Sequence record: OQ689735.1
From: Escherichia phage 4E10
DNA length: 64,000 nucleotides
Direction: 5' to 3' (one strand)
Made by a program: the position numbers and the translations under genes. Shown one piece after another: positions 17,999 through 38,177 of the stretch; within the stretch, counting starts at the first letter, position 1; each line of letters begins with the position of its first letter. The notes beneath the pieces were generated by a model. The model was not told the origin of the DNA. It made no database searches and saw only the letters and a list, made by a program, of their open reading frames with translations.

Positions 17999-18026
17999 TT
18001 TGTGTTCCTCCGTAGTTGATAGTTGT

Positions 18027-18056
18027 ATAGTACCACAGAGGAACAGTCTTGTAAAC
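18027..18056 (-). promoter_or_regulatory. T4-type early promoter (conserved module)
   Basis: Minus strand GTTTAC, 18 nt, TGG-TACTAT, then conserved leader ACAACTATCAACTAC. Confidence 0.55.
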
Positions 18057-18058
18057 AA

Positions 18059-18361
18059 CTAAAAGAAACTTCTTTCACAATTTTTTCCACTAAACCATGC
18101 GCTGACCGCTTTCTTAGTCTCAGGAGCAGTGTTATCCATAAACCATTCAAAGGCAGCCTTTTTATGATTCTGGAGGGCTTCTCGGGCTTTAATCTGCTCA
18201 CGGTCTATTAACACTAATATATGAGCCTTTCTTGTCACCAAGGGCTTCTTATGATTCTTGGAGTATTCCCAGTCATTTGTCCAACGCATTGTCGTTGCGA
18301 ACTGATGAACCGCGTCTTTAATTTTAGTTTCATAAATTTCACGAGCCTTTGAGTATAACAT
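18059..18361 (-). CDS. Hypothetical protein
   Basis: ORF track 18059..18373; ATG at 18361 with GGAGGT site. Confidence 0.5.
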   Translation of the reverse strand: MLYSKAREIYETKIKDAVHQFATTMRWTNDWEYSKNHKKPLVTRKAHILVLIDREQIKAREALQNHKKAAFEWFMDNTAPETKKAVSAWFSGKNCERSFF

Positions 18362-18462
18362 CACTACCTCCATTCACCAGTTTAATTCTAGTCATCTTTT
18401 TGATGGCAGTCCATATAATCTATTTCTGAACTGCCTTTTTGTCATAGAAGTCCTCTTATGAA

Positions 18463-19431
18463 TTATTTCAGAAGAGTAACCTCAGCGATTTCTTCCCAAC
18501 CGTTTTTGTCGGTCATAATAAAGTCAGCAAGATAAAGAGCAGTACGCAGTGAAACATTGCGTAAACGATTAACATTGACTTTCATCCATGATAATGCTTT
18601 ATAAGTTTCTTCATCAGAAAGACCGCGCTTTTGCATCATGTCAGTTGAAAGAATAACATCTTCAACCCTGACCATAATTTCTTCATTAGTGTGAACACCC
18701 AAATCTAAATAAACTGAGCGGGACACTAATGCTTGTAAATGTGGAGCAAGTTTAGTACCACGGTCTAATTCGCGGTCAATGTCAACGTTTGTGATAAAAA
18801 CAATCGTTCCTTTAAATTCAAACTCACGCTCAATGCCTTTTTCTTCTAAGTAAGAAGATGCAGTGCTCCAGCAGACTTTACGGGTCTCTCCAGTGTCCAG
18901 AGCGGCTTTTAGAAGATTAAGAATATCCATATCAGAGAAAACATCCACATCATCAATCAAAAGGACAGAATTCTCTTCACGATTATTCCAAAGCTGCTCA
19001 TAAAGACCGATACCGGAGATTTTACCGTTAATGCTTTTATATTCAATGTATCCAATATCATTTGCTTTATTTAAAGCTTTATCTAAAGAATACGTTTTAC
19101 CAATACCTGCTGCACCAGAGATAATTAATGAACGAATGTTTCCGTTAATAATACCATTCGTCATCATTCCCATAACATTAAATCTTTTATTAATGCGGGT
19201 TTTCATATCTTCATACGATTCTTTAACTTCTTCAACTTTTACACCATCATATGAAATGTCTGATTTGTAAACCCAAACACCGCGACGTTTACCGTCAATT
19301 TCAACAAAAACTTTACCATCTCCTTGTGCATCTACCGGAGCATTATCTGGGAACCATTCGCCTAAAAGCTCAAAAGTTCCAGAGATTTCTTTACCGAAGT
19401 AGATACCCTTATTGATAGTTACAGTTTTCAT
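18463..19431 (-). CDS. AAA+/P-loop ATPase
   Basis: Walker A GAAGIGKTYSL and Walker B VLLIDDVD; ATG at 19431 with GGAG site (ORF track starts at an upstream TTG). Confidence 0.7.
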   Translation of the reverse strand: MKTVTINKGIYFGKEISGTFELLGEWFPDNAPVDAQGDGKVFVEIDGKRRGVWVYKSDISYDGVKVEEVKESYEDMKTRINKRFNVMGMMTNGIINGNIRSLIISGAAGIGKTYSLDKALNKANDIGYIEYKSINGKISGIGLYEQLWNNREENSVLLIDDVDVFSDMDILNLLKAALDTGETRKVCWSTASSYLEEKGIEREFEFKGTIVFITNVDIDRELDRGTKLAPHLQALVSRSVYLDLGVHTNEEIMVRVEDVILSTDMMQKRGLSDEETYKALSWMKVNVNRLRNVSLRTALYLADFIMTDKNGWEEIAEVTLLK

Positions 19432-19468
19432 TTTATTCTCCAAATCTGTATCAGTAGTTGATAGTTGT

Positions 19469-19498
19469 ATAGTACCATAAAGCTTTATGATTGTAAAC
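19469..19498 (-). promoter_or_regulatory. T4-type early promoter (conserved module), upstream of the AAA ATPase gene
   Basis: Minus strand GTTTAC, 18 nt, TGG-TACTAT, conserved leader. Confidence 0.55.
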
Positions 19499-19522
19499 CG
19501 TTTTGTGAAAAATTTTTGAAAT

Positions 19523-19546
19523 AAAAAAGGGAGCCCGAAGGCTCCC
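19523..19546 (-). terminator. Strong rho-independent terminator downstream of the nucleotidyltransferase gene
   Basis: Minus strand GGGAGCC-TTCG-GGCTCCC followed by TTTTTT. Confidence 0.7.
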
Positions 19547-19548
19547 TA

Positions 19549-20562
19549 TCATTTATAATAACTTCGGTGGTTTTCAAGATAGACCTTCTCAAGGAAGTCA
19601 TCCCAGAAACTCATGTCTACTGTTTTAGGCATACCGTTCTTAGAAGCTTCAGTAGATGCTGCTTCTACTTGATCGACCACATCTTCTAAAAACTCTTGAA
19701 CCGTTTTAAATGGATGCTTACCCAACTTCACGTCGAGAATAAATGGAGCGTCTTGAAGTGGATAAATCAAGTCGCCAGTTTTGTAAATTTCCAATAGTTG
19801 AAGTCCACCACGACAGGCATGACTCAGAGCTTTCCAGTCAATGCCTTCATTGGCTTCGGCCTTACGAGCACGTTCACCATATTCAGCATCTAATTTGTTC
19901 AGTGACTGCTTAAGCTCAATAAGAGAAAGCGTTGTCTGATATTTACGACCCAATACAGTGTAGAACGTTTGTGGACCTGTTTTCTCATGATTATGGAATA
20001 CCCATTCACAAAATTCGTTCTCTGGAAGACGATGCTTAATATCTTCAACTTTAGTTCGACGCTGCTTAATGGAACCGTCTTCTTGGTAATCAACCCATTG
20101 CTCAGGGATTTGATTAACTACTTTCAATACATCACGTAATGCGGCCAAACGAGAACCCTTAACACCGTATTTAGAAGCTTGCTTGCGAACATATCCTAAA
20201 TAGGATTTCATGTTAGTCGTATAAAAACGAGAACGGTTGTCTTGAATAAACTTCCACACATCAGGCAAATCGGATTTAACCACTAGTTCAGGTGGAGTGT
20301 GAAGCATATCCAATGCTACAGTTTCACCATCTGCTGCTAATTTAAAGAAATACTTAAGACTGTATAGTTCATGGTCAATATCATCTTTAGTGTTTTTAGA
20401 TGATGTGTTGTTAGTGTTTTTACTCATATGCTCTTTAACATTTCCAATAAGAATATCGCGAGCAGGAGGAACAAAGATTTCTTTAAAATCTACATCAGAT
20501 TCTGGAGTAGAAGTTCCATAAAGATGACTACCAAAATAGCTTTTCATTACTGTTTTCATCAT
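19549..20562 (-). CDS. Pol-beta-superfamily nucleotidyltransferase-fold protein
   Basis: N-terminal GSHLYGTSTPESDVDF fits the hG[GS]x9-13Dh[DE] nucleotidyltransferase signature; 337 aa; strong terminator directly downstream. Confidence 0.65.
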   Translation of the reverse strand: MMKTVMKSYFGSHLYGTSTPESDVDFKEIFVPPARDILIGNVKEHMSKNTNNTSSKNTKDDIDHELYSLKYFFKLAADGETVALDMLHTPPELVVKSDLPDVWKFIQDNRSRFYTTNMKSYLGYVRKQASKYGVKGSRLAALRDVLKVVNQIPEQWVDYQEDGSIKQRRTKVEDIKHRLPENEFCEWVFHNHEKTGPQTFYTVLGRKYQTTLSLIELKQSLNKLDAEYGERARKAEANEGIDWKALSHACRGGLQLLEIYKTGDLIYPLQDAPFILDVKLGKHPFKTVQEFLEDVVDQVEAASTEASKNGMPKTVDMSFWDDFLEKVYLENHRSYYK

Positions 20563-21020
20563 TCAGCCTTATATTCAATAACAGGACATACTTTAGCTTT
20601 ACGCGCTTTTAAAAATTCGACGATAATAGATTTCTTGGGTTGAATAGGAGGTAAACCTTTATACGCCCTATCAATATTTTCTACATGTAAAGCATAATCC
20701 TTTTTCCATTTATAATCTTTATATTTTTCATGCAGTTGTGCAGGAATAACAAATGAACCGATAATAAGTAAAACAAGCAAAATGGCAAGTATAAATGCCG
20801 ATGGAAGAAGAGTCCATAAACTACCGAAAATAAGCCAACGTTGTAGGCTTTCTGCACAAATAATTGTTAGCCCTACGAGTATAGCACATCCAAAAATAGA
20901 AACGAAAAATGTAGGAATGGCAATAGACCAAAAATATGCGCATAGTGTCTTAGGTCGTTGCCATTCATCGTTAAACAATTTGAATAATTTATAATGCCAA
21001 GAGTTTTCATTAATAATCAT
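20559..21020 (-). CDS. Multi-pass membrane protein
   Basis: 153 aa with about three hydrophobic segments. Confidence 0.5.
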   Translation of the reverse strand: MIINENSWHYKLFKLFNDEWQRPKTLCAYFWSIAIPTFFVSIFGCAILVGLTIICAESLQRWLIFGSLWTLLPSAFILAILLVLLIIGSFVIPAQLHEKYKDYKWKKDYALHVENIDRAYKGLPPIQPKKSIIVEFLKARKAKVCPVIEYKAE

Positions 21021-21022
21021 AA

Positions 21023-21544
21023 TTATCCTTTCATTGAAGGCGTAACGGTTGTTAAATACTTAATCATAGCTTCAGCTTCTGATTTTGATAATGAAATTTC
21101 TCCATTGTTTTGACGAATAGAAATAAAATCCGGATGACGGTCACCACCAGCTTTTAAAACACACATATAAGTATCAGTTTCACCTTCAATATTTGAAATG
21201 ATTGAAGCAGTTCCACATGAATGCGGTTTTTGATAAATCAATGCAGCTTTTCTTCCGCCATTTGACTGCTCATAGGCTTTTAATACATCAAGCAAATCAG
21301 TTCTTTTATCAATAGCTAAAATGTTATTTTCATCTTCAATGTTAAATCCTTCGGATACTTCATAAAGTGTTACCCATAAATCACCAATGTCAATAACAGC
21401 ATTTACTTTTCCACGGCTTTCAAGAGTATGACAAATTTTCTTGATTTCGTCATAACTCATTTTAATAATATCATCTCCTTGACTAAGGAAGATGTCATTT
21501 TTAAATTCAACACGAATTAAACCGCTTCCACTTGAAATAAACAT
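21023..21544 (-). CDS. Hypothetical protein (paralog of 21551-22093)
   Basis: 173 aa; C-terminus EAMIKYLTTVTPSMKG resembles the neighbour's AIALKTYLDSVIPTMISK. Confidence 0.5.
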   Translation of the reverse strand: MFISSGSGLIRVEFKNDIFLSQGDDIIKMSYDEIKKICHTLESRGKVNAVIDIGDLWVTLYEVSEGFNIEDENNILAIDKRTDLLDVLKAYEQSNGGRKAALIYQKPHSCGTASIISNIEGETDTYMCVLKAGGDRHPDFISIRQNNGEISLSKSEAEAMIKYLTTVTPSMKG

Positions 21545-21550
21545 ATTTCC

Positions 21551-22093
21551 TCACTTTGAAATCATAGTTGGAATGACAGAATCAAGATAAGTCTTTAGCG
21601 CAATAGCTTCGTCTTTGGTAAATGTGACAATATGTGCTCGAGAATCATCATTTTGGCGAACAAGTACGACATCGCCATCTTCATAAGAAGTCTTGACATC
21701 CAAAGTCGTAGTATAATTTGCAGCTACTGGATTAATAATGCTAGCACCGCGATCTTTAGCCCATTGAAGTTTAGCCTTTTCGGGTGTTTCGACTGTTTCA
21801 GATTCCAAGAATTCTTTCACCTTGGCAACGAATGTTGCCCAATTGTTGATAGAAAGACACGCAAGTTCAGTTTCAATATTACCACCGTGAGTGCCACGAT
21901 AAAAACGAACTTGGAGGTCGTCTGTAATATTAGTTACACAGGTAACTCCTGAGGGAGCATAAGATAAAATCGCAGGCAATTCCATAGGAAGAATAGTAAT
22001 ACTATCGTCTTCCTGCGTCAGAACGTATACATTACCACGTTTTTCGATAACCAGGTCACCGAACAAATCAGTTGTTTCAATTACAGCTTTCAT
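21551..22093 (-). CDS. Hypothetical protein (paralog of 21023-21544)
   Basis: ORF track 21551..22105; ATG at 22093. Confidence 0.5.
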   Translation of the reverse strand: MKAVIETTDLFGDLVIEKRGNVYVLTQEDDSITILPMELPAILSYAPSGVTCVTNITDDLQVRFYRGTHGGNIETELACLSINNWATFVAKVKEFLESETVETPEKAKLQWAKDRGASIINPVAANYTTTLDVKTSYEDGDVVLVRQNDDSRAHIVTFTKDEAIALKTYLDSVIPTMISK

Positions 22094-22094
22094 A

Positions 22095-22280
22095 TTATTT
22101 ACCAATTAAAGTTTCAATATAAGAATCAAGATTTACTTTAGCTTCTTCCATAAGAGTTTTGTATTTAATCTTGCTGGCATGTCCAGAAAAAGCTGATTCA
22201 TCAATAATTGTTGACGTATGAACAGCTTTACTATACGTCTCAATTAATTCTCTTAATTTAAAAGCCTGCTCACTTGTCAT
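22095..22280 (-). CDS. Small helical protein (small-paralog family)
   Basis: ORF track 61 aa. Confidence 0.45.
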   Translation of the reverse strand: MTSEQAFKLRELIETYSKAVHTSTIIDESAFSGHASKIKYKTLMEEAKVNLDSYIETLIGK

Positions 22281-22412
22281 TACATACTCCTCTGAATCAT
22301 ATCAATAATGTTGTTCACCAGATTATAAGTAAACATTGGGTAATTATATTGAATCATCACATACACAACAAACAAAACTTTCATTCTCTTCTCCTTGGCA
22401 GTTGACAAGATT

Positions 22413-22442
22413 ACTATACCATAACCTTGCCAACTTGTAAAC
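22413..22442 (-). promoter_or_regulatory. T4-type early promoter
   Basis: Minus strand GTTTAC, 18 nt, TGG-TATAGT. Confidence 0.5.
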
Positions 22443-22444
22443 CA

Positions 22445-22618
22445 TTAAATGACGTTTTCGATAAAATTCTGAAGCTTTGTATGAGCATCAACCATGATTT
22501 TCAATTCTTCTTTAGCGAAAGCCGTACCTCTTTCCCGAGCAGAATACTCATAGTCAGAAACTGCATTAGCATATTCTTCAATTAGCTTCATTAAAAACAT
22601 CTGCTTTTCAGTTTTCAT
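22445..22618 (-). CDS. Small helical protein (57 aa), below ORF-track cutoff
   Basis: ATG at 22618 preceded by AGGTGGAATA, the same initiation motif as the gene at 22805-23008. Confidence 0.4.
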   Translation of the reverse strand: MKTEKQMFLMKLIEEYANAVSDYEYSARERGTAFAKEELKIMVDAHTKLQNFIENVI

Positions 22619-22802
22619 TATTCCACCTAATCATTTCAAGATATTGAACTAACTTAGCTTTAGATTTATCCAAATCCCTTTTAGCTGATTCTATACCATC
22701 GTATGAATATCCTTCACAATGCTCAACTGCTAATTGGTATGAATCTATTTCAATATCATGCGCTAATTTAATGATTTTTTCAAACTGTTCACGTGTTAGC
22801 AT
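22608..22802 (-). CDS. Small helical protein (small-paralog family)
   Basis: ORF track 64 aa. Confidence 0.5.
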   Translation of the reverse strand: MLTREQFEKIIKLAHDIEIDSYQLAVEHCEGYSYDGIESAKRDLDKSKAKLVQYLEMIRWNNEN

Positions 22803-22804
22803 AA

Positions 22805-23008
22805 TTAAACTCTCGTATTATGATCGATAATTTCATCAAGAAACATATCTAACGCTTCTAAAGCATTATCAACTTTAGTTTCAAGTTCATCAATGCCTTT
22901 ATTTGCAATGCCTGATGAAAACCAAGCAAAGTCACTAAGTTCCTCATCTGCTTTACGAATTAAAGCTACCAATTCCTTAATTTTATCCGCTTGTTCGATA
23001 CTAATCAT
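22805..23008 (-). CDS. Small acidic helical protein (small-paralog family)
   Basis: ORF track 22805..23044; ATG at 23008 with GGTGGAATA site; TAATG overlap with upstream gene. Confidence 0.5.
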   Translation of the reverse strand: MISIEQADKIKELVALIRKADEELSDFAWFSSGIANKGIDELETKVDNALEALDMFLDEIIDHNTRV

Positions 23009-23196
23009 TATTCCACCACATATGAAAGAGAGAATATTGCACATGCCATGTGAGTTGCAACTTCATCACACATATTATAGCGTTTCTTAAGAAGTTCTAC
23101 AAGTTCTTCACTAGTAACTTCATCCATGTCGACGAAAAAATCACCATTAATGATGACGTAGATATTTCCTTCTTGATTGAGTGCTTCAATTTTCAT
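23008..23196 (-). CDS. Small hypothetical protein
   Basis: ORF track 23008..23343 includes translated promoter; real start [10 protein letters not shown] at 23196 with AAGAGGAGAA site. Confidence 0.45.
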
Positions 23197-23224
23197 GATG
23201 TTCTCCTCTTTATCCGATAGTTGT

Positions 23225-23254
23225 ATAGTACCACAGCTCAAACGGAAAGTAAAC
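23225..23254 (-). promoter_or_regulatory. T4-type early promoter (conserved module)
   Basis: Minus strand GTTTAC, 18 nt, TGG-TACTAT, conserved leader. Confidence 0.55.
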
Positions 23255-23264
23255 CGGTAAAATG

Positions 23265-23285
23265 AAAAAGTCTCCCGAAGGAGAC
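23265..23285 (-). terminator. Rho-independent terminator
   Basis: Minus strand GTCTCC-TTCG-GGAGAC followed by TTTTTC. Confidence 0.65.
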
Positions 23286-23290
23286 TAATG

Positions 23291-23677
23291 TTATTCGAGG
23301 GAAAGAAGATACTTACTCTGGTAAAACATTCCAGTAATATCATCTATCGTGCTTTGGATGGCTGGAGGCATTTCTTTATAAATGCTGTTAGATTGGTCTA
23401 GTATGCGATCAATCATTTTAATTGTGTCGGTAGGAAGTTTACTGGCATCTGGAATTGAAGGTGTGTATTTTCTACCAGAATACCCCAAATATTGCTCACC
23501 AAATTTATCAATCAAATCTGGTAACTCGGAGAAAATAAAATCGTATGCTTTGTGTCTAGCATAATTTTTAGTTTCAAAATGTGCAGAATGAAAATAAGCT
23601 TGTGCAGCCATTAATAAACCTAAGTATTCATCTGCCTTTGAAGGTTTTCCACTTTGTGAAAAGTCGCTGAATTTCAT
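23291..23677 (-). CDS. Hypothetical protein (rI.-1 position)
   Basis: 128 aa immediately downstream of rI; terminator after its stop. Confidence 0.5.
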
Positions 23678-23967
23678 TCAGTCTCCAATTTAATGTTCAT
23701 AATTTTAGCGTATGATTGTGCCATCTCCGCGCCTCGTTCTATACATTCAAAATCAGAAGAGCACGGGTCATTTTTATAGGTCGTTCTCATAAAACTATAG
23801 AATTGTTCAGACGATTCTACGCTTTTATTTTCAAAAAGCATATAAACGTGCCTAATACCAGATTCCATAAATTTATCAAAATGAGGATCGACATTCGCTT
23901 CAATCGATGGAGATAAAACAAATGACAATCCTAGCATGGCAAATAGTGCCGTTGCTTTTAAGGCCAT
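23674..23967 (-). CDS. rI: Lysis-inhibition regulator rI (signal-anchored periplasmic protein)
   Basis: 97 aa, MALKATALFAMLGLSFVLSPSIEANVDPHFDKFMESG...; matches recalled T4 RI. Confidence 0.9.
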   Translation of the reverse strand: MALKATALFAMLGLSFVLSPSIEANVDPHFDKFMESGIRHVYMLFENKSVESSEQFYSFMRTTYKNDPCSSDFECIERGAEMAQSYAKIMNIKLETE

Positions 23968-23979
23968 AAAGGCCTCCTA

Positions 23980-24192
23980 TCATTTTTGTCCTGTATTTAC
24001 TTTATGCCGATGCACGGCCTTAACTTTATCAAGGTATTTTTCAAAATTTCGCAATCTAGTATAGTCTGCCGGAGATTGGTTGAGTGATACTTCTCGACGC
24101 AAAGCTGAAATGATATTTCCAACTTCCCTACGAATTTCATCTAATTGAAGAACAGTAAGATTGCGAAGTTGCTTTTCAGTTAATTGTAGCAT
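23980..24192 (-). CDS. Hypothetical protein
   Basis: ORF track 70 aa. Confidence 0.5.
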
Positions 24193-24234
24193 ATATACCC
24201 CTTTAGTTAGATAAACCTATTTATAACTTTTGCA

Positions 24235-24816: not shown

Positions 24817-24825
24817 ATCACCTTC

Positions 24826-26930: not shown

Positions 26931-27392
26931 TCATTGAGTTTTAATTACTGCTTTAGAAGCCTTTCCTGGTAAACGACGACTGTTGATAATTGCCATTCTA
27001 CATTGAAGTGACGGGTCTTTGAACTTCGCATTAGGTTTACAAACTGTAAATCCAAGCCAAAGATTTCCATCTGTGATTTCTAAACGTCCAGGACGATATT
27101 CAACCCCATCAATAAAATTCTCGTCAATGTCAGGACGCGGAGGCATACTCAGGAATTCATTAACTTCTAAAACATGGTCTTTTATTTTGTGGAATAATTC
27201 AAAAACATATGTCTCATCAATCTCCCGTTGAATTGCACGATCAAGAAGATGCTGAGAATATTTTAGATGAAACGATGAGACCCCTGCTGCTTTTGATGCC
27301 TCACGAATCTCATTGTTAATTTGACGAAACTCCGACTCAAAGTGACGACGAAGCTTATTTCGACGGATAAAAACTTCTGTATTGATAGTCAT
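26931..27392 (-). CDS. regB: Endoribonuclease RegB
   Basis: 153 aa, MTINTEVFIRRNKLRRHFESEFRQINNEIREA...; matches recalled T4 RegB; early promoter directly upstream. Confidence 0.93.
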   Translation of the reverse strand: MTINTEVFIRRNKLRRHFESEFRQINNEIREASKAAGVSSFHLKYSQHLLDRAIQREIDETYVFELFHKIKDHVLEVNEFLSMPPRPDIDENFIDGVEYRPGRLEITDGNLWLGFTVCKPNAKFKDPSLQCRMAIINSRRLPGKASKAVIKTQ

Positions 27393-27419
27393 GTTATTCT
27401 CCTCTTAACTGATAGAAAA

Positions 27420-27449
27420 ATTATACCACAGTCAAGAGGAAAAGTAAAC
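27420..27449 (-). promoter_or_regulatory. T4-type early promoter upstream of regB
   Basis: Minus strand GTTTAC, 18 nt, TGG-TATAAT. Confidence 0.6.
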
Positions 27450-30060: not shown

Positions 30061-30069
30061 ATGTTTCCT

Positions 30070-30486
30070 TTAAATGTAAATATTTTTACCGTAATACTTG
30101 TACCAATGTGGTTTCATTAAAATTTTTTCATCAAGTCGTTGTTGACTCAATTTAATAGCTGATTTGCATGGATTATAATCATTTTTCCATTCTGCTGGAA
30201 TATCGCTGATGTCAGGAACTTCAGTATCTTTTATACTAAACCCGCGTTTTAAGCATTCCGTTATAATGTCTGATTGACGCTTTCGCAAAAATTCTAACTT
30301 ATCGTAAAAGAAAGTAACATGACCAGAACCTAAAATAAACTCGGAAGATATTTTAAAATCTTTAACCCGCTTACCATTTGCCACATGTTTACGAACTATA
30401 CCAAAAACACGCGGCAATTCACGGTATTCTGCGATTAAATGTTGATCAGCAAGTTCAGATACTAAAGTCAAATTAATACGAGTCAT
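30070..30486 (-). CDS. denV: Endonuclease V (pyrimidine-dimer DNA glycosylase)
   Basis: 138 aa, [29 protein letters not shown]...WYKYYGK; matches recalled T4 DenV. Confidence 0.93.
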
Positions 30487-30510
30487 TTTATCCCTCCAAG
30501 TAACTGTGAA

Positions 30511-30541
30511 TATACTATCACAATTCTAGGAGAAAGTAAAC
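30511..30541 (-). promoter_or_regulatory. T4-type early promoter upstream of denV
   Basis: Minus strand GTTTAC with TAGTAT -10 candidate. Confidence 0.45.
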
Positions 30542-30545
30542 AACT

Positions 30546-31076
<531 letters not shown>

Positions 31077-31532: not shown

Positions 31533-32002
31533 TCAGTGATAAAGTTATTTAAATTTTGAGTATATTTCTTTTCATCAAAAATCTTTTGCTGCCTACGTAA
31601 CCGCCATGGCATTTCAATGAACATGTACCATATTCCTGATAGTATTGCTGCTGTAAAAATATTAACAAGTATGGTTAAAAGAGCCCAATCTCCTATTCTA
31701 TCCATTGGATTTTTTATAAAAAAGTAAAACACAAACGATGATATAGGAAGACTAATGATATACCACAGAATCATAATCTTATTTGTAAACCAATCAGCAT
31801 TTGTTAACTTAGCGCGACCGTTTTGAATACATACGAACTTATCATCTGTTATAGTAGATGGCTTAGCTGCTTGATATCCCATTCTAAACTCCCTAATCAA
31901 CAAATTTTTCATATCTTCTGAACAACCATTCCAGTCAACTCTATCAACTGAAATGCCATCATCCCCATCATCTAAATCATACCAGCGAGTTTTTAAAATC
32001 AT
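31514..32002 (-). CDS. Membrane protein (e.2 position)
   Basis: 162 aa with two hydrophobic helices. Confidence 0.5.
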   Translation of the reverse strand: MILKTRWYDLDDGDDGISVDRVDWNGCSEDMKNLLIREFRMGYQAAKPSTITDDKFVCIQNGRAKLTNADWFTNKIMILWYIISLPISSFVFYFFIKNPMDRIGDWALLTILVNIFTAAILSGIWYMFIEMPWRLRRQQKIFDEKKYTQNLNNFITECRKLK

Positions 32003-32361
32003 TTAATTTTCCTACAATCACTCACAAACTCTTTCATTGATTCGTTTTCAATATAAGACATATAGCTATTATATTCCTTTAATTGTATTTTGTAATCCTT
32101 TTTTCTTTGCCAATTTATTTTAAAATTATCATAATGAAAATATAGTATGGTGCCAAAGAATGAAAATAATGAAATCGCTATAGTATAATGAAGTTCACTC
32201 CAAACCTCTGTTATAATTGCTGAACCATCGACGTTTAAAATAAAACAGTCAATCATTAATCCAATAAGACTACCCGCAAGAGCTGCAAATACTGACACGG
32301 CAAGAATTAACAGTGCCTCAAGAAACGAATATTTGACTTTATTTAGTTTTGGCTTTTGCAT
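31999..32361 (-). CDS. Membrane protein (e.3 position)
   Basis: 120 aa with two hydrophobic helices. Confidence 0.5.
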   Translation of the reverse strand: MQKPKLNKVKYSFLEALLILAVSVFAALAGSLIGLMIDCFILNVDGSAIITEVWSELHYTIAISLFSFFGTILYFHYDNFKINWQRKKDYKIQLKEYNSYMSYIENESMKEFVSDCRKIK

Positions 32362-32756
32362 CGTGATTCCTTAACAAATTTCATAATTTCATTAAATTCA
32401 TACATATCTAGCTTAAGCTGGTGTTCCTTTTTAATCTTTTTACACCGGGCTTTCCAATCACGTACACGTTTACGATAGTGTCTTCCTTGATACCAGTATC
32501 CTATCCAATTTACAGGTATTAATAAAAGCGGAACTACCAATGGAAGAATTAGTGTTGCTCCAAATATTACACCAGATTCAATATCAGTCATAACGTCTAT
32601 AATCATTCCAGCAATCAGCAGAATCACAAATGATACAGCTACCACAGGACCTATTAACACATCAGTAGAAATTATCTGACGCTTTAATTCATACTTCAAC
32701 GGTTTACTTGGAAGGTATAGTGATGGCTTTGACATATTCTCTACATTCCTTAACAA
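32343..32756 (-). CDS. Membrane protein (e.4 position)
   Basis: 137 aa with two hydrophobic helices and basic C-terminus. Confidence 0.5.
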   Translation of the reverse strand: MLRNVENMSKPSLYLPSKPLKYELKRQIISTDVLIGPVVAVSFVILLIAGMIIDVMTDIESGVIFGATLILPLVVPLLLIPVNWIGYWYQGRHYRKRVRDWKARCKKIKKEHQLKLDMYEFNEIMKFVKESRCKSQN

Positions 32757-33312
32757 ATTTTTCTAATAATAAATCGCTTTCAAAATTGGGATTTTCTACG
32801 AATTTATCAAAAAGATCATCAACAATAGTTAAGATATTCTTTTTACTAAGAATACGTTTATTTTCATGCTTCGTTTCAGAATCAACTATAAGAGTAAAGA
32901 AATATTTCTTGCCCTGAAATTTTACAGTAGTATCAATATAGAATAAATTTGACTTTTGTAAATTACGTTTAAACCATTCATCACTTAAACTATAAACGCC
33001 AAGATAATCATAATTGTCGTTTAAATAACAGACCGTCCATTCAGGAGAAACAAAATCAGTAAATTCAACATCAAAATCGCATGTTAATAAATGAATTGAT
33101 TCAATACTGTTAATAAGTATTCCAGGACGTATTAAAGACTTTTTACCTCTAGAAAATCTTCCAGAAAGACTTTCATCAGTTTCATATGAAGAACCCCAAT
33201 AATAATTACGTCCTTCTGCCATACGTTTAAGAGCATTTAATAATTGGTCTGGAACATCAACCTGTCTTTGAAACTCTTCAAACATTGAATTGAAATCACT
33301 TTGCATTTTCAT
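32704..33312 (-). CDS. Hypothetical protein
   Basis: ORF track 202 aa. Confidence 0.5.
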   Translation of the reverse strand: MKMQSDFNSMFEEFQRQVDVPDQLLNALKRMAEGRNYYWGSSYETDESLSGRFSRGKKSLIRPGILINSIESIHLLTCDFDVEFTDFVSPEWTVCYLNDNYDYLGVYSLSDEWFKRNLQKSNLFYIDTTVKFQGKKYFFTLIVDSETKHENKRILSKKNILTIVDDLFDKFVENPNFESDLLLEKFVKECREYVKAITIPSK

Positions 33313-33332
33313 TCCTATTTACTCCAAGTAAT

Positions 33333-33348
33333 AGGGGCCGAAGCCCCT
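33333..33348 (-). terminator. UUCG-tetraloop hairpin (weak terminator)
   Basis: Minus strand AGGGGC-TTCG-GCCCCT; U-tract weak. Confidence 0.4.
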
Positions 33349-33353
33349 TATCA

Positions 33354-33947
33354 TTATTTCAGAGAATTAATGTATTCCTGAACATCGGCAGAGGTAGTTT
33401 CAACCCCAGAAATATTACCGTTAAAGGTTTCAACTCGAGCAAGAGTATCTTCAATATCAACCTTAGTCAGTGCTGCAATTTCAACTACATCATCAGCAGT
33501 ACTAATTCCAAGGGCATTCGCGGCGCGAGTTTCACGGATATATTCCAATTTAACTGCAAGTTCTTGGCGAGCATCATCCAATTCAACTACTTTCTTAGCG
33601 ATTTCAATTCGCATTTCAGCATAACCATCAGCTTTAGTAGTCAACTGCTCAGCTGTTCGACGATATAGTAAACCGAGTTTAGCATGCATTGTTACATCTT
33701 GACCTTCGGAAAGAAGCTTGCGAATTTCACGCTCTTTTGATTCGGCCTGCTTATTCTTTTCGACAATAAGTTCACGAATACGCTTTTCTTCATTAATAGA
33801 TTTAACGGAAGCAGTTTTTAGATCTTTAATCTTATCAAGTAGTTTTGCTGCCGCAGCAGTATACTGTTCTTCGACAGATAGATTTTTAGCCATAGCAGAA
33901 CCAAGTTTAGTGCGAATAAACTCAACAATTTTCTTCAGTGTGTTCAT
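33354..33947 (-). CDS. Coiled-coil protein
   Basis: 197 aa, Ala/Glu/Lys-rich helical; early promoter upstream, hairpin downstream. Confidence 0.55.
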
Positions 33948-33989
33948 AGTATTTCCTTAGGTTGATTAAGATTTAAAATCCGTGAGAGT

Positions 33990-34019
33990 ATTATACCCTG
34001 TTATTTGAGAGATGTAAAC
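33990..34019 (-). promoter_or_regulatory. T4-type early promoter
   Basis: Minus strand GTTTAC, 18 nt, TATAAT. Confidence 0.55.
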
Positions 34020-34355
34020 TTATTCTTCGTCTATTTCATCGATAAAGACATCAATGGCCTCGATAACGGCATCATTGATAACCAATAAAGTAAAATCATC
34101 GTCAGTGCCTTTAGAATATTCTAAAGCATTGATATATGCTTGGTTGGCAAGTTCCCAAGCCTTTTTAAAATAAGGAGCTTCATCATCAGGGCCAACGAAA
34201 CGTACACCTTCAAAGATACGGTTAGCATAATCTAATACCCATTGTACAGGCATGTTTTGAGAACGTTCGTTAAACTCTTCAAAGTCCTTAGATTCAAAAA
34301 GTTCTTCAGGGTAATTATTTCTATTACAAAAAGCTTTACTAAAGTTACGTTTCAT
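34020..34355 (-). CDS. Hypothetical acidic protein
   Basis: ORF track 111 aa; early promoter at 34381-34410. Confidence 0.5.
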   Translation of the reverse strand: MKRNFSKAFCNRNNYPEELFESKDFEEFNERSQNMPVQWVLDYANRIFEGVRFVGPDDEAPYFKKAWELANQAYINALEYSKGTDDDFTLLVINDAVIEAIDVFIDEIDEE

Positions 34356-34380
34356 AATGTTCTCCTCAAATTATGGGCTC

Positions 34381-34410
34381 ATAATATCTCAATCATGAGC
34401 CCGTGTAAAC
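34381..34410 (-). promoter_or_regulatory. T4-type early promoter with embedded 8-bp inverted repeat
   Basis: Minus strand GTTTAC, 18 nt, TATTAT; the spacer contains GGGCTCAT...ATGAGCCC. Confidence 0.5.
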
Positions 34411-34686
34411 TTATTTCATATTATTGAAATATTCTTCTGCGATTTCGTCGTTATCATGGTAAACTTTAGAAGACAATTTAACATAACCTTCAGCAGTGAA
34501 CATGTTAATCACAACCTTTACAGTATACCACTGACCGTCTTCATTGCCCATTACCGCATAAGTTTCAAACATCGGATGATCAGGACCGATAACTTTAATA
34601 TCATTCACTGTACGACCGAAATCTTCTGAAACACATTTCATAAAGAAGTTGAACAGTTCGCCGTAATTATCCATTTCGTTCTCCAA
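34411..34686 (-). CDS. Hypothetical protein
   Basis: ORF track 91 aa; early promoter at 34718-34747. Confidence 0.5.
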   Translation of the reverse strand: MENEMDNYGELFNFFMKCVSEDFGRTVNDIKVIGPDHPMFETYAVMGNEDGQWYTVKVVINMFTAEGYVKLSSKVYHDNDEIAEEYFNNMK

Positions 34687-34717
34687 GTTGTTTTCTGTAT
34701 CAGTAGTTGATAGTTGT

Positions 34718-34747
34718 ATAGTACCATGGAAGAACGGGGATGTAAAC
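34718..34747 (-). promoter_or_regulatory. T4-type early promoter (conserved module)
   Basis: Minus strand GTTTAC, 18 nt, TGG-TACTAT, conserved leader. Confidence 0.55.
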
Positions 34748-34875
34748 AGTTTTGTGAAAATTTTTTTAAAAAATTTTAGGGAATTCTAGGGTCAGGAGGG
34801 GCAATTAAAAGGTAGGATAATATATTATAAAGGGTATAAACTAAATGATGCCTAGAGAGGCCCGGAAAGGCCTAG

Positions 34876-34911
34876 ATACCAAAAAGCCCCAACCTTTCGG
34901 TCGGGGCTAAG
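34876..34911. repeat. 36-bp perfect direct repeat, copy 1
   Basis: ATACCAAAAAGCCCCAACCTTTCGGTCGGGGCTAAG, identical to 35435-35470. Confidence 0.85.
34880..34908 (-). terminator. Rho-independent terminator (repeat copy 1), with a second hairpin at 34858-34873
   Basis: Minus strand AGCCCCGACC-GAAAGG-TTGGGGCT followed by TTTTTGG. Confidence 0.65.
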
Positions 34912-34915
34912 AATG

Positions 34916-35389
34916 TTATTTGATTTGTTTAGCAGACCAAATGCGGTCTTTAATAATTTTTTGGATGTCTTCAACATACTCAAGAGAGTGAGCATGTGGG
35001 TTATCTTTGAAACTATAAGCACGAGCTAGCTTTTGGCCTTCAGTTTTGATTACTAAAAGCTCTTTAAGGATAGCTTCATATTTGGAGATAATTCCTTTAA
35101 CAATATTTTTTTCTTGTGCAGCTTTAGGATCTGCTTTAGGAGCAGGTTTACCCGAAGCCTTTGCAAAAGCAGCGCCAGTAGCAACTAGACTTTTCCAGGC
35201 CATACTAACCGCATTTCCTGTAAATCCTTCTGCTTTCATGTCGCGAGCAAATTGGAATCGCGATTCGTCAGAAGCATCTTTATAAGAATATTTACCCGCT
35301 GCAATGGCTGCTTTTGCAACAGCTTGAATTTCGGTGCTAGATGCTTCATTTAACACCGCTTCATTTAAAAATTGAGTATATGATTTCAT
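34916..35389 (-). CDS. Internal-protein-like protein with capsid-targeting-sequence-like N-terminus
   Basis: N-terminus MKSYTQFLNEAVLNEA resembles the capsid targeting sequence of ipI (MKTFKEFTS) and of 29587-30060; Ala/Lys-rich; late promoter upstream and terminator downstream. Confidence 0.6.
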   Translation of the reverse strand: MKSYTQFLNEAVLNEASSTEIQAVAKAAIAAGKYSYKDASDESRFQFARDMKAEGFTGNAVSMAWKSLVATGAAFAKASGKPAPKADPKAAQEKNIVKGIISKYEAILKELLVIKTEGQKLARAYSFKDNPHAHSLEYVEDIQKIIKDRIWSAKQIK

Positions 35390-35429
35390 CTTATTTCCTG
35401 TTTTAATTCGTGGATTTAATATACTACTA

Positions 35430-35437
35430 TATTTATA
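35430..35437 (-). promoter_or_regulatory. Late promoter for the gene at 34916-35389
   Basis: Minus-strand TATAAATA about 40 nt upstream of the ATG, immediately after a terminator. Confidence 0.55.
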
Positions 35438-35470
35438 CCAAAAAGCCCCAACCTTTCGGTCGGGGCTAAG
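35435..35470. repeat. 36-bp perfect direct repeat, copy 2
   Basis: Identical to 34876-34911; the pair flanks the gene at 34916-35389. Confidence 0.85.
35439..35466 (-). terminator. Rho-independent terminator (repeat copy 2) closing the candidate ncRNA locus
   Basis: Identical hairpin and U-tract to copy 1. Confidence 0.65.
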
Positions 35471-35776
35471 CCTTGCGGCAACCTTGTCGGGGTTCCACCT
35501 GCTAAGGCAAGTGTTTGTACGAAACGCCGGGATTCGAACCCGGTTATTAAGCAGTTGACGCTACTCAATATTTTTAAAAGGCCATATCTCGACCATATCC
35601 GAACGTTCCGTCAAAAACGCTACTCGACTTACGGCAAAGATATTTCCTCGAATCGATAATTCGGTGCGCCGTTTCTGCTGTGATGTAAGAGGGCATCAAT
35701 AAACGCAAAGATTATTAACGCAATTCCTTACTCAGGGAACATCAGTCCGACGACTTACCGGTAGCGACCCGGTTTC
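35471..35776 (-). ncRNA. Candidate stable structured RNA locus (tRNA-like T-arm and acceptor elements); possibly analogous to T4 small stable RNAs
   Basis: 306 bp with no ORF of 60 aa or more on either strand, between a CDS stop and a terminator; minus strand contains CCGGG-TTCGAAT-CCCGG followed by CGTTTCG, which can pair with CGGAACG about 60 nt upstream. Confidence 0.35.
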
Positions 35777-36127
35777 TTAATATTCTTTTAAAGCATCAAT
35801 CTGTTTACGGCGTTCACGCCATAAATCAATTGCTTCATACGCGGATTCAGCATTTCGAATTGGACGGCATTTATATAAAGACTTGTGATTTTGATATTGC
35901 GTAGATAACGGAATTTTATCTAAAAGGTCTTTACGTTCAAAGTATTCGTAACCATCTAAGCCAAATGAACGATTTTTGAGAAATTGCCAATGACCATATT
36001 CGTTTTCGACATAAACATAATCCGCGTGTTGATAAAGCAAATTAATTACACGTTCAGAAATAATAGTGTCATTGTGATTAAAATAAAATGTTAAATCATG
36101 AACTACTAAATAAACATTACCTTTCAT
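35777..36127 (-). CDS. Hypothetical protein
   Basis: ORF track 116 aa, immediately downstream of tRNA-Arg. Confidence 0.5.
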   Translation of the reverse strand: MKGNVYLVVHDLTFYFNHNDTIISERVINLLYQHADYVYVENEYGHWQFLKNRSFGLDGYEYFERKDLLDKIPLSTQYQNHKSLYKCRPIRNAESAYEAIDLWRERRKQIDALKEY

Positions 36128-36143
36128 ATTTTCCTCACTTAAT

Positions 36144-36219
36144 TGGTCGAGGCAGTAGGGATCGAACCTACGACCTAGGACTTAGAAGGTCCTTGCTCTT
36201 CCTTCTGAGCTATGCCCCG
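36144..36219 (-). tRNA. tRNA-Arg (anticodon TCT)
   Basis: Hand-folded cloverleaf: 7-bp acceptor, D-stem GCTC/GAGC, anticodon stem AGGAC/GTCCT, loop CTTCTAA, T-loop TTCGATC, CCA encoded. Confidence 0.8.
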
Positions 36220-36223
36220 TAAT

Positions 36224-36299
36224 TGGGGTGACCGATGGGAGTCGAACCCATGACTACGAGAATCACAATCTCGAGTTCTACCAACTGAACTACGGCCAC
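36224..36299 (-). tRNA. tRNA-His (anticodon GTG); no encoded G-1
   Basis: Perfect D, anticodon (CGAGA/TCTCG) and T stems; loop TTGTGAT; discriminator C73; residue -1 is U rather than G. Confidence 0.65.
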
Positions 36300-36412
36300 A
36301 TTAATACCTACTCCAACAATCAAGATGTCTTCACACGAAATTAAGAGAAGAGTGATCAGTTCAACCCTATAATCGCGTCAAGTAGATATTAATGTGACAG
36401 TTGTCACAAATT

Positions 36413-36487
36413 TGGCGGACGTGATAGGATTCGAACCTATAACCAATCGCTTAACAGGCGATCGCTCTGCCATTGAGCTACACATCC
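36413..36487 (-). tRNA. tRNA-Asn (anticodon GTT)
   Basis: Clean cloverleaf: anticodon stem ATCGC/GCGAT, loop CTGTTAA, T-loop TTCGAAT, discriminator G, CCA encoded. Confidence 0.75.
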
Positions 36488-36491
36488 AAAT

Positions 36492-36578
36492 TGGTGGGGA
36501 GTGATGGAGTCGAACCACCCGAGTCGCAATGACAATGAATTTACAGTCCACACCGCTACCTCTACGGGATAACTCCCC
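36492..36578 (-). tRNA. tRNA-Tyr (anticodon GTA), long variable arm
   Basis: 87 nt; acceptor GGGGAGT/ACTCCCC; loop CTGTAAA; anticodon stem has two G-U pairs; variable-arm stem GTC/GAC. Confidence 0.6.
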
Positions 36579-36591
36579 TTAATTCTTAATT

Positions 36592-36666
36592 TGGTGGCCC
36601 TGGGTGGAATTGAACCACCATCTGGCGATTATGAGTCGCTTGCTTGAACCTTCCAGCTACAGGGCC
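36592..36666 (-). tRNA. tRNA with CAT anticodon (Ile-lysidine type by T4 analogy, or elongator Met)
   Basis: Acceptor GGCCCTG/CAGGGCC, loop CTCATAA, T-arm GGTGG-TTCAATT-CCACC; sits where T4 has tRNA-Ile. Confidence 0.7.
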
Positions 36667-36667
36667 T

Positions 36668-36743
36668 TGGTGCTGATTGACGGAATCGAACCGCCGACCT
36701 TCTCATTACAAGTGAGTTGCTCTACCTACTGAGCTAAATCAGC
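36668..36743 (-). tRNA. tRNA-Thr (anticodon TGT)
   Basis: Cloverleaf with loop CTTGTAA, T-loop TTCGATT, CCA encoded. Confidence 0.8.
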
Positions 36744-36748
36744 AAAAC

Positions 36749-36838
36749 TGGCGGAGGCGATAGGATTTGAACCTATGAGTCGCCGGAGCGACTGCCGGTT
36801 TTCAAGACCGGTGCATTAAACCACTCTGCCACGCCTCC
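36749..36838 (-). tRNA. tRNA-Ser (anticodon TGA), long variable arm
   Basis: 90 nt, GGAGGCGTGGCAGAGTGG...CCGGT-CTTGAAA-ACCGG; matches recalled T4 tRNA-Ser. Confidence 0.85.
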
Positions 36839-36840
36839 AG

Positions 36841-36914
36841 TCTCCATACAAGGATTTGAACCTTGGACCTCCTGATCCCAAATCAGGCGCTCTACCAAAC
36901 TGAGCTACACGGAG
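36841..36914 (-). tRNA. tRNA-Pro (anticodon TGG); 3' CCA not encoded
   Basis: Loop TTTGGGA; acceptor CTCCGTG/TATGGAG; only 2 nt separate it from tRNA-Ser, consistent with the known T4 Pro-Ser dimeric precursor. Confidence 0.8.
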
Positions 36915-36924
36915 TAAATTAAAT

Positions 36925-36998
<74 letters not shown>

Positions 36999-37003
36999 AA
37001 ATT

Positions 37004-37090
37004 TGGTGCGAGAAGTGGGACTCGAACCCACAAGGAAATCATTCCGCAGCATTTTAAGTGCTGTGCCTTTACCAATTTGACCATTCTCGC
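37004..37090 (-). tRNA. tRNA-Leu (anticodon TAA), long variable arm
   Basis: GCGAGAATGGTCAAATTGGTAAAGGCACAGCACTTAAAATGCTG...; matches recalled T4 tRNA-Leu. Confidence 0.85.
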
Positions 37091-37091
37091 G

Positions 37092-37164
37092 CTGGGAATA
37101 AAGGACTCGAACCTTTGCATCCTGGAATCAAAATCCAGTGCCTTACCAACTTGGCTAATTCCCA
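37092..37164 (-). tRNA. tRNA-Gln (anticodon TTG); 3' CCA not encoded
   Basis: Loop TTTTGAT with stem CTGGA/TCCAG; U1-A72; abuts tRNA-Leu with a 1-nt spacer (Gln-Leu dimeric precursor as in T4). Confidence 0.8.
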
Positions 37165-37233
37165 ATTATTAACAAAGGCTCTCTAACAAGAACCCTTGAT
37201 GATAGAGGGTATTAATCAGTGCGATATGAGTTA

Positions 37234-37260
37234 ATAATAACAAATAATTCTTAAAGCATA
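37234..37260 (-). promoter_or_regulatory. Candidate MotA-dependent middle promoter for the tRNA cluster
   Basis: Minus strand TATGCTTTA (MotA-box-like) then 12 nt then TATTAT, about 70 bp upstream of tRNA-Gln. Confidence 0.4.
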
Positions 37261-37261
37261 T

Positions 37262-37555
37262 TTACCATTTATGATGATACATACTTACGATGCATTCAAG
37301 ACCCAAAAGATTCTTGAAAATATCATATTCAAGAGGACCTTTTTCTGTTTCAATAAAGAAATCAAAATTTACTGTATTAAATTTACGGTCTTCCTTCACT
37401 AATTTAACCTGAGAAGATGAACGGTCAATGTAAACCTTTTCAACTTCAAAACATGTTAAAATGCCATAATCATCAATCAAGGCTTTAGCTGCTTCTTGAT
37501 CATATTTATATCCATTTTCAATGGATGATACTTTCGCATAAAGAATCATTATCAA
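37262..37555 (-). CDS. Hypothetical protein
   Basis: ORF track 97 aa. Confidence 0.5.
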   Translation of the reverse strand: MIMILYAKVSSIENGYKYDQEAAKALIDDYGILTCFEVEKVYIDRSSSQVKLVKEDRKFNTVNFDFFIETEKGPLEYDIFKNLLGLECIVSMYHHKW

Positions 37556-37932
37556 CCTTCATCAACAATAGTGTGCGTATTGGCATTTACAATTTGCCAC
37601 CAATCAAAGCGATTAGAACCATAATCTGGTTTGTTTTCATTTTCTTTGATAATGTCACGGAGTTCATCTTCGGTAGCGGCTTTCGCTATTAAATCAGCAT
37701 ATCCACCACGAGGATAATAATTATCACCTGCAAAAAGTAAAAAGTTTGGTTTAATGTTATTGAACTCTTCAAGAGTAATAACTTTTCCTGACGGTTGAAC
37801 AATCTCTACATATTTATATCCCAATTTTTGAGCAGCATCTACTGCTTCAAGCAAAGTATCATGAGCCCATCCAATTTGACAACCTGGCTTTTCAGATGGA
37901 TTAGCCTGATAATCCGCATACACTTTGTACAT
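37552..37932 (-). CDS. Hypothetical protein
   Basis: ORF track 37552..37971; ATG at 37932 (MYKVYADYQ) with AAGGTG site. Confidence 0.5.
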   Translation of the reverse strand: MYKVYADYQANPSEKPGCQIGWAHDTLLEAVDAAQKLGYKYVEIVQPSGKVITLEEFNNIKPNFLLFAGDNYYPRGGYADLIAKAATEDELRDIIKENENKPDYGSNRFDWWQIVNANTHTIVDEG

Positions 37933-37933
37933 T

Positions 37934-38119
37934 CTATTCACCTTTAGAAATTTTATCCATAACGATAGCAATTAAACCAATTAAAAATGCTACTACAAGT
38001 GAAAACACATTTTCTGCTGTAGTCAATAATCCGCATATAAATCCAACAAACATTGAAAAACTAAAAGCAGAAGCAGAAATTGCAATAGCAACATTTCGAA
38101 TTAATTCACAACGTTTCAT
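37934..38119 (-). CDS. Small membrane protein
   Basis: 61 aa with two hydrophobic helices; early promoter upstream. Confidence 0.45.
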   Translation of the reverse strand: MKRCELIRNVAIAISASAFSFSMFVGFICGLLTTAENVFSLVVAFLIGLIAIVMDKISKGE

Positions 38120-38147
38120 TTTATTCTCCTCGGTAGTTGATAGGGTA

Positions 38148-38177
38148 ATAGTATCACAACTAAAACCCTATGTAAAC
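38148..38177 (-). promoter_or_regulatory. T4-type early promoter (variant of conserved module)
   Basis: Minus strand GTTTAC, 18 nt, TACTAT. Confidence 0.5.

Follow-up and report, generated by a model that had tools for sequence, protein, structure and literature searches.

Early promoters of phage T4 have an architecture with consensus regions beyond the elements of E. coli promoters (Hinton 2010), they follow the consensus TTTACW-N17-TAYWAT (Comeau 2014), and a further description of them comments on positions downstream as far as -1 (Nolan 2006). A second relevant system are the PeSLs, conserved early promoter/terminator units of ~100 bp that are homologous recombination sites and reassort small early genes; RB49/phi1 were the phages in which they were initially reported, followed by T4/PST (Arbiol 2010; Comeau 2014). 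The stem-loops of PeSLs sit between the -35 and -10 elements or overlap the -10, and recombination between PeSL copies yields mini-circles or shuffled modules, as detected by inverse PCR in RB49/phi1 only (Arbiol 2010). Here we analyze five promoter-leader cassettes (P1 to P5) on the minus strand of a 64,000-nucleotide stretch of the genome of Escherichia phage 4E10 (OQ689735.1; "the window"), which share all or part of a sequence block that runs from the -10 region into the predicted leader. What recurs here is real but ordinary, i.e., T4 early promoters and the reuse of cassettes that carry them, both of which are already known, and the identity past the -10 probably reflects an extended promoter/start-site consensus.

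The window is a segment of a Tequatrovirus (T4-like) genome, and its positions 17000-24000 match 834 phage records with an identity of 97-99.7% to Tequatroviruses such as ECO95 1-6-1, NiC89, RB27, and Kha5h. It is A+T-rich (G+C 33-39%), its GC skew switches sign near 42 kb, and its counterpart in T4 (AF158101) is the early-gene region between approximately genes 46 and 4, with late genes 53 and 5 coming next.

Composition of the repeated block

The core of the block is the 24-mer GTAGTTGATAGTTGTATAGTACCA, of which the window contains exactly three copies (18012-18035, 19454-19477, and 34703-34726) while 100 shuffles contained none. Read on the minus strand, this sequence is TGG-TACTAT-ACAACT-ATCAACTAC. 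A pattern search for GTTTAC-N18-TACTAT-nCAACTATC on the minus strand returned the same three sites (18018-18056, 19460-19498, and 34709-34747) and a fourth one (23216-23254) that has only TGGTACTATACAACTATC in common with the block, or 18 of 24 nt, before it departs to ATCGGATAAAG. A variant site at 38133-38156 reads TGATACTAT, continues with a different discriminator (taccct), and then shows ATCAACTAC again, a motif that was found four times in 64 kb and each time at a promoter position. An earlier reading of the window from its letters alone (the sequence-only reading) had reported a near-identical module at about 18011, 19451, 23216, and 34701, with a variant at 38131, that would be used at least five times. 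Five related sites are indeed present at these places, give or take an offset of 1-3 nt, but they are three exact copies, one partial copy of 18 nt, and one variant.

At all five sites GTTTAC lies exactly 18 nt before TACTAT, in line with the spacing of about 18 bp that had been proposed, and a consensus promoter scan gave TTTACA-17-TACTAT with TG for four of the five. Four sites have TGGTACTAT as their extended -10 and the remaining one has TGATACTAT, the second position of the hexamer being A and the sixth T in each case, and an A/T-rich UP-like region at around -40 to -55 shows tracts of the aaaatttttcacaaaac type at P2, P4, and P5 but is weaker at P1 and P3. The usual geometry of sigma-70 promoters places the start at an A seven nt after the -10 hexamer, by which the predicted starts are 18020, 19462, 23218, 34711, and 38141. 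With a start at this A, the block is therefore composed of TGn, the -10 TACTAT, the six-nt discriminator ACAACT, and the first nine bases predicted to be transcribed, AUCAACUAC. Each cassette is an interval of 60-75 nt that extends to an early-gene orthologue's start codon, with a predicted 5' untranslated region of 22-37 nt and GGAG in the Shine-Dalgarno sequence of all five leaders.

Judged from these elements, the five sites are sigma-70-dependent early promoters of the T4 type, as the sequence-only reading had supposed. All five are orthologous to T4 promoter positions on the same strand, in front of the early genes nrdC.8, nrdC.10, mobD.5, e.8, and trna.4, and the T4 GenBank record L13089 annotates a -35 and a -10 (TACTAT) for e.8 (msp1) that are the same as those of P4. 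With T4 early promoters (Pe; UP/-35/TGn/-10), the window sites share GTTTAC, a 17-nt spacer if counted in the TTTACA frame, TGn, a -10 of the TAnnnT type, the A/T-rich upstream region, and the location at early genes; there is no essential difference, and the block marks a sub-class with a fixed ACAACT discriminator and a ATCAACTAC start. A whole-genome scan of T4 revealed the same module outside the region covered by the window as well, before motA, imm.1, frd.3, and cef and in the ndd/denB region, and the T4 copies share a longer leader, ATCAACTACTGATAC(A/G)GA.... A total of 573 phage records contain the corresponding 33-mer, which Tequatrovirus genomes have at 6-9 places each and RB69 at a single one. 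Contigs of IMG/VR containing TACTATACAACTATC were collected and provided ~30 T4-like promoter copies. In our literature search, queries for the exact block sequences returned nothing relevant, and no discussion of early-promoter conservation downstream of -1 was found.

Conservation downstream of the -10

The sequence-only reading had held that conservation extends well past the -10, and this is borne out by the three exact copies, which are fully identical from -15 to +9 (1.00) even though their spacers (-30 to -16) are only 0.40 identical and thus near background. The conservation can therefore not be put down to whole promoters having been duplicated recently, and the divergent spacers of the exact copies rule this out as its sole cause, the outcome that would have undone the earlier proposal.

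Evidence from beyond the window comes from a comparison of T4, RB69 (Mosigvirus), and JS98 (Dhakavirus). A promoter weight matrix trained exclusively on positions -50 to -7 identified 36 early promoters in T4, among which positions +1 to +8 contain 0.3-0.9 bit of information (consensus ATcaAcTa), compared to ~0-0.2 bit in the middle of the spacer. This signal, as well as a depletion of G from -6 to +10, remains after dropping the nine T4 promoters of the ACAAC class. The weight matrix with its fixed 18-nt spacer missed most promoters of JS98 and many of RB69, which have 17-nt spacers, and the cross-genus tally of ATCAA was made by a regular-expression count in its place. ATCAA was found at the predicted positions +1 to +5 of 5/15 promoters in the window, 11/32 in T4, 13/28 in RB69, and 9/14 in JS98, against a genome-wide background frequency of 0.0025. 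In RB69 and JS98, these starts are accompanied by different hexamers (TATAGT, TATTAT) and discriminators (agtcct, agacct) and by spacers that are unrelated. The single RB69 copy of the strict block, at e.8, was discounted as independent cross-genus evidence because the adjoining coding sequence is 95% identical to that of T4. A family-wide consensus of the start region is thus real, and the conservation past the -10 is not merely recent duplication.

Leader RNA and RegB cleavage sites

The conserved tract had been proposed to be a shared 5' leader element rather than promoter consensus alone. It is correct that nine nt predicted to be transcribed are conserved, but the tract reads as an extended promoter consensus, and neither RNA structure nor Rfam nor 16S rRNA complementarity speaks for a leader element. 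Leaders folded from the predicted +1 have no shared structure, and their first nine nt are mostly unpaired (unpaired probability 0.5-0.85). An Rfam scan of window positions 17000-40000 at gathering thresholds found tRNAs only and no leader RNA family. With no shared fold and no Rfam family beyond tRNAs, we rejected a structured leader RNA such as a riboswitch, a thermometer, or a protein operator. The longest run of complementarity to E. coli 16S rRNA is 5 nt, which is equaled by 98.6% of shuffles, and an rRNA-complementary translational enhancer was rejected because this match is at chance level. A search of the window for an antisense or long-range partner found none, and a 15-mer with up to three mismatches added a single hit at chance level.

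Cleavage by RegB had been suggested as another reason for a conserved leader. RegB/S1 sites with the consensus GG*AGRAYARAA are found in the ribosome-binding sites of T4 early mRNAs, and GGAGAATAAAA at P2 and P5 is an exact fit to this 11-nt consensus while P4 fits at 6/7. Cleavage by RegB/S1 depends on sequence 3' of GGAG, whereas 5' of it nothing specific is needed, and extra 5' RNA accelerates cleavage, with motA RNA as one of the substrates (Durand 2006). The window cassettes resemble RegB/S1 sites in that GGAG is part of the Shine-Dalgarno sequence of all five leaders alike, but the conserved block itself lies outside the site, 5' of GGAG. Since no specific sequence is required at this place (Durand 2006), we rejected the block as part of a RegB site. 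The motA leader, for its part, does carry the block module. With regard to the discriminator, studies of DksA found no motif in it that correlates with the regulation of T4 early promoters.

Mosaic junctions and probable recombination at the cassettes

The cassettes resemble PeSLs in several ways. They are present in multiple copies of ~60-100 bp that span from an early promoter through the Shine-Dalgarno sequence to the start codon, some of them are paired with a terminator or a predicted stem-loop, they cluster among small non-essential early genes, and they are located at junctions of gene insertion, deletion, or replacement. Among the IMG/VR contigs, the frd.3 and imm.1 loci have one and the same downstream half, but the spacers to which it is joined vary from phage to phage, and the upstream halves of PnrdC.10 and PmotA are also joined to other leaders and other genes. 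Contig L091 has an insertion of three additional small genes, all of them behind early promoters of their own, precisely at the leader of P2 (junction at window positions 19458-19441). Contig L123 has a replacement at the P2 leader, and in it the -10 directly adjoins the fused upstream terminator. On the basis of these junctions, the block appears to be a joint at which recombination connects different upstream halves with different leaders and genes, which matches the behavior of PeSLs.

A further mosaic arrangement concerns denV, which in the window (30440-30580, minus strand) lies directly behind a promoter that precedes ipIII in T4 (GTTTAC...TAGTAT attcac). The sequence switches to the denV leader just before the Shine-Dalgarno sequence, and T4 ipII and ipIII are absent from the window. 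We interpret this arrangement as promoter-cassette recombination in the variable IP locus.

The insertion in L091 (1560-2390) comprises open reading frames of 49, 87, and 66 amino acids between nrdC.11 and nrdC.10, whose promoters are of the RB69/JS98 type (agacct/agtcct ATCAAA...), and nrdC.10 itself has a TATAGT-agtcct promoter in place of the ACAACT module. The nrdC.10 leader also differs between phages, with ATCAACTACTGATACAG... in the window (19454-19462), ATCAACTGATACGG... in T4 (55340-55350), and ATCAACTAATACGG and ATCAACTGATATGG in relatives from IMG/VR. The long leader is therefore variable at +7 to +17, with +1 to +6 kept.

Explanations for the conserved tract

Since the conserved tract directly adjoins the -10 and its first bases lie upstream of the start, we read it as an extended promoter/start-site consensus and not as a separate leader element. 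That this consensus sits on paralogous, recombining promoter-leader cassettes is what we consider the probable explanation of the block as a whole. The host RNA polymerase holoenzyme would bind the elements UP, -35, TGn, and -10 and start transcription at the A seven nt after the hexamer, i.e., at a T(-1)/A(+1) start site downstream of the G-free discriminator ACAACT. The products would be immediate-early mRNAs whose 5' end is short, unstructured, and C/A-rich and whose ribosome-binding site is exposed; their GGAG Shine-Dalgarno sequence, presumably also a target of RegB/S1, follows 1-20 nt past AUCAACUAC. The identity of the copies would have two causes. One may be a family-wide constraint on the start region, visible as a weak ATCAAnTA at +1 to +8 in three T-even genera, which most plausibly tunes start-site choice and promoter escape of very strong promoters, and the other may be common descent combined with ongoing homologous recombination for which the -10/start block could serve as the crossover joint. 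The architecture, the copy number, the consensus across genera, and the mosaic junctions are observations, whereas the start position, any effect of -6 to +9 on initiation or escape, and any function of the segment +1 to +9 are inferred. As a lead only, phage promoters T5 N25 and T7 A1, where the initial transcribed sequence controls escape, may be comparable as very strong sigma-70 promoters with an A start and a purine- or G-poor initial region; the T7 A1 transcript also begins with AUC.

Several points weigh against this interpretation. The transcription starts in these cassettes are predicted from sequence, and our literature search gave no genome-wide map of T4 5' ends. In contrast to PeSLs, most copies of the ACAACT-ATCAACTAC class lack a stem-loop that overlaps the promoter. 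Finally, the other early promoters are 0.38 identical over discriminator and initial transcribed bases, only slightly more than over their spacers (0.35); the strict identity over 24-33 nt therefore belongs to a subfamily, and promoter function alone does not explain it.

One alternative is that the first nine transcribed bases, AUCAACUAC, form a discrete RNA element for stability, processing, or the recruitment of S1 or the ribosome that is selected apart from promoter function. The segment is predicted to be transcribed, mostly unpaired, C/A-rich, and G-free, its ATCAA start is common to three genera across different types of -10 and discriminator, and the additional 5' sequence that speeds RegB/S1 cleavage of motA RNA belongs to a leader with this module. 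However, the conservation is contiguous with the -10 and takes in six bases that are not transcribed, past +9 the leaders differ from each other in both length and sequence, and RegB/S1 needs nothing specific upstream of GGAG. Given also that no conserved structure or pairing partner, no Rfam family, no 16S match above chance, and no antisense copy in the window was found, we regard such an element as unlikely. We are similarly doubtful that the tract from -6 to +9 (ACAACT|ATCAACTAC, whose ATCAA core begins early transcripts in at least three T-even genera) is an element with a function of its own, which would set the 5'-end identity or escape of privileged immediate-early transcripts (motA, imm.1, e.8) or be a target of shut-off. 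A role of the block as an operator over the start site for a phage or host factor, e.g., for the shut-off of early promoters minutes after infection, seems very improbable. Reviews do call the mechanism of early shut-off not understood, the fixed 15-nt tract from -6 to +9 with its 7-nt tandem CAACTAT|CAACTAC occupies a position typical of repressors, and a longer leader variant has a weak dyad (ATCA-N5-TGAT). Yet the block is found in only ~1/4 to 1/3 of early promoters while shut-off is general, the copies do not all have a dyad in common (it is missing from P1 and P5), and the literature that we examined offers neither a candidate binding protein nor an experimental hint.

Alternatively, the copies could be purely historical, i.e., recent duplicates or gene-conversion products of one promoter, with a functionless sequence past the -10. 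In T4, some copies have spacers and upstream sequence in common as well (Pfrd.3 with PnrdC.10; the group of imm.1, ndd, and nrdC.8), the strict block is limited to one subfamily, the mosaic junctions indicate frequent exchange, and the RB69 e.8 copy with its 95% identical neighboring coding sequence is not independent. Against this, the spacers of exact copies are near background (0.40) although 24 contiguous nt are identical, and each copy is stable at its own locus between T4 and 4E10. RB69 and JS98 moreover combine the ATCAA start with spacers, -10 variants, and discriminators that are unrelated, and promoters outside the subfamily also show a depletion of G between -6 and +10, so we give history without function little credence. 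An extended promoter/start-site consensus on recombining cassettes thus remains our preferred explanation.

Organization of the individual cassettes

The promoters and upstream hairpins described in this section are on the minus strand. P1 (17996..18056) lies upstream of the nrdC.8 orthologue and corresponds to T4 site 53919. It is composed of the -35 GTTTAC (18056-18051), TGG and TACTAT (18035-18027), ACAACT (18026-18021), ATCAACTAC from the predicted start A (18020-18012), GGAG (18011-18008), and ATG (17998-17996), and includes the first exact copy of the 24-nt block, TGGTACTATACAACTATCAACTAC (18012..18035). P2 (19429..19498), upstream of the nrdC.10 orthologue (T4 site 55360), has its -35 at 19498-19493, its -10 at 19474-19469, the second exact copy of the block (19454..19477), a predicted start at 19462 with the leader ATCAACTACTGATACAGATTTGGAGAATAAAATG, GGAG at 19441-19438, and ATG at 19431-19429. 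Directly upstream of P2 is an intrinsic-terminator-like hairpin with a T-run (19528..19547; AGGGAGCC TTCG GGCTCCCT), which forms a composite terminator-promoter with P2.

P3 (23194..23254), upstream of the mobD.5 orthologue (T4 site 58756), consists of a -35 at 23254-23249, a -10 at 23230-23225, ACAACT at 23224-23219, and the leader ATCGGATAAAGAGGAGAACATCATG from a predicted start at 23218; the 18 nt that it shares with the block are 23216-23233. It also directly follows an intrinsic-terminator-like hairpin with a T-run (23269..23286; AGTCTCC TTCG GGAGACT). P4 (34672..34747), upstream of the e.8 orthologue (T4 site 70672), has a -35 at 34747-34742, a -10 at 34723-34718, the third exact copy of the block (34703..34726), a predicted start at 34711 with the leader ATCAACTACTGATACAGAAAACAACTTGGAGAACGAAATG, and ATG at 34674-34672. 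Between e.8 and the tRNA cluster, two identical 36-nt copies of ATACCAAAAAGCCCCAACCTTTCGGTCGGGGCTAAG (34876-34911 and 35435-35470; 559 bp apart), which on the minus strand are a terminator with a 10-bp stem, flank an open reading frame of 157 amino acids (34916-35389, minus strand), and phage Lutter has the same terminator-gene-terminator arrangement. The tRNA cluster itself (36144-37164, minus strand) has 11 genes (Arg, His, Asn, Tyr, Met, Thr, Ser, Pro, Gly, Leu, Gln), whereas T4 has eight.

The variant P5 (38117..38177), upstream of the trna.4 orthologue (T4 site 73548), has its -35 at 38177-38172, TGA and TACTAT at 38156-38148, the discriminator TACCCT at 38147-38142, ATCAACTAC from the predicted start at 38141 to 38133, then GGAGAATAAAATG, and ATG at 38119-38117. 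A related early promoter in front of the ipI orthologue (38483..38543; GTTTAC-18-TACTAT tatctc ATCAAAATT) shares the -10 and the ATCAA start with the block but has another discriminator and leader.

Predicted hairpins around early promoters

Approximately 40% of T-even early promoters lie in strong predicted hairpins whose 5' arm is the spacer, whose loop contains the -10, and whose 3' arm is taken from the discriminator, from the first transcribed bases, or from the Shine-Dalgarno sequence. Examples on the minus strand of the window are 17994-18052, 27385-27445, and 38115-38173, and others are found genome-wide in T4 as well as in RB69 and JS98. Of the 36 T4 promoters, 15 fold with z < -3, and the longest inverted repeat averages 5.83 nt in cis compared to 4.29 nt in trans (permutation p = 2e-4). 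The hairpin arms covary between orthologues, as in the regB promoters with CTCCTGTAG/CTACAGGAG versus CTCCTCTAG/CTAGAGGAG. The promoter before cef in T4 (AF158101, ~6560-6640) has a poor -35 (ATATAC) and a spacer containing ATCAGTAGTTGAT, the exact reverse complement of the leader start ATCAACTACTGAT, so that the -10 is enclosed by an inverted repeat of 13 bp (-20.2 kcal/mol, z -5.3).

Promoters of the ACAACT class are mostly without spacer pairing around the -10, with P1 as the exception and P5 with a shorter stem. In the predicted fold of read-through RNA at P1, the spacer pairs with ACUAC and GGAGGAACA over 14 bp (-20.2 kcal/mol, z -5.1), while at P5 the spacer TAGGGT is predicted to pair with ACCCTA in a hairpin around the -10 (-13.7 kcal/mol, z -2.7); P4 has no significant hairpin (z -1.8). 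Altogether, two cassettes have a separate upstream terminator (P2 and P3), one has a spacer-to-Shine-Dalgarno hairpin, and one has a spacer-to-discriminator hairpin. Where the Shine-Dalgarno sequence is part of the 3' arm (nrdC.8, regB, denV), these folds predict that read-through RNA would mask it while locally started RNA would not. This arrangement is reminiscent of T4 e, soc, 49, and I-TevI, whose translation is controlled by a promoter inside a hairpin and whose Shine-Dalgarno sequence is likewise hidden in read-through RNA only. However, those cases involve late promoters and were shown experimentally, whereas the ones described here involve early promoters with a predicted effect, and most copies of the block lack the pairing.

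Implications for T4-like phages

T4 early promoters are a classic model of how a phage out-competes host promoters, and cassettes of the PeSL type are a proposed engine of gene shuffling in T4-like genomes. The present analysis re-derives both from raw sequence. Its residual value lies in the start region, with an ATCAA... consensus across T-even genera and a subfamily of promoters that are identical over 24-33 nt despite differing spacers. If it were true that this tract acts in promoter escape, shut-off, or the fate of the mRNA, it would bear on how early transcription is switched off.

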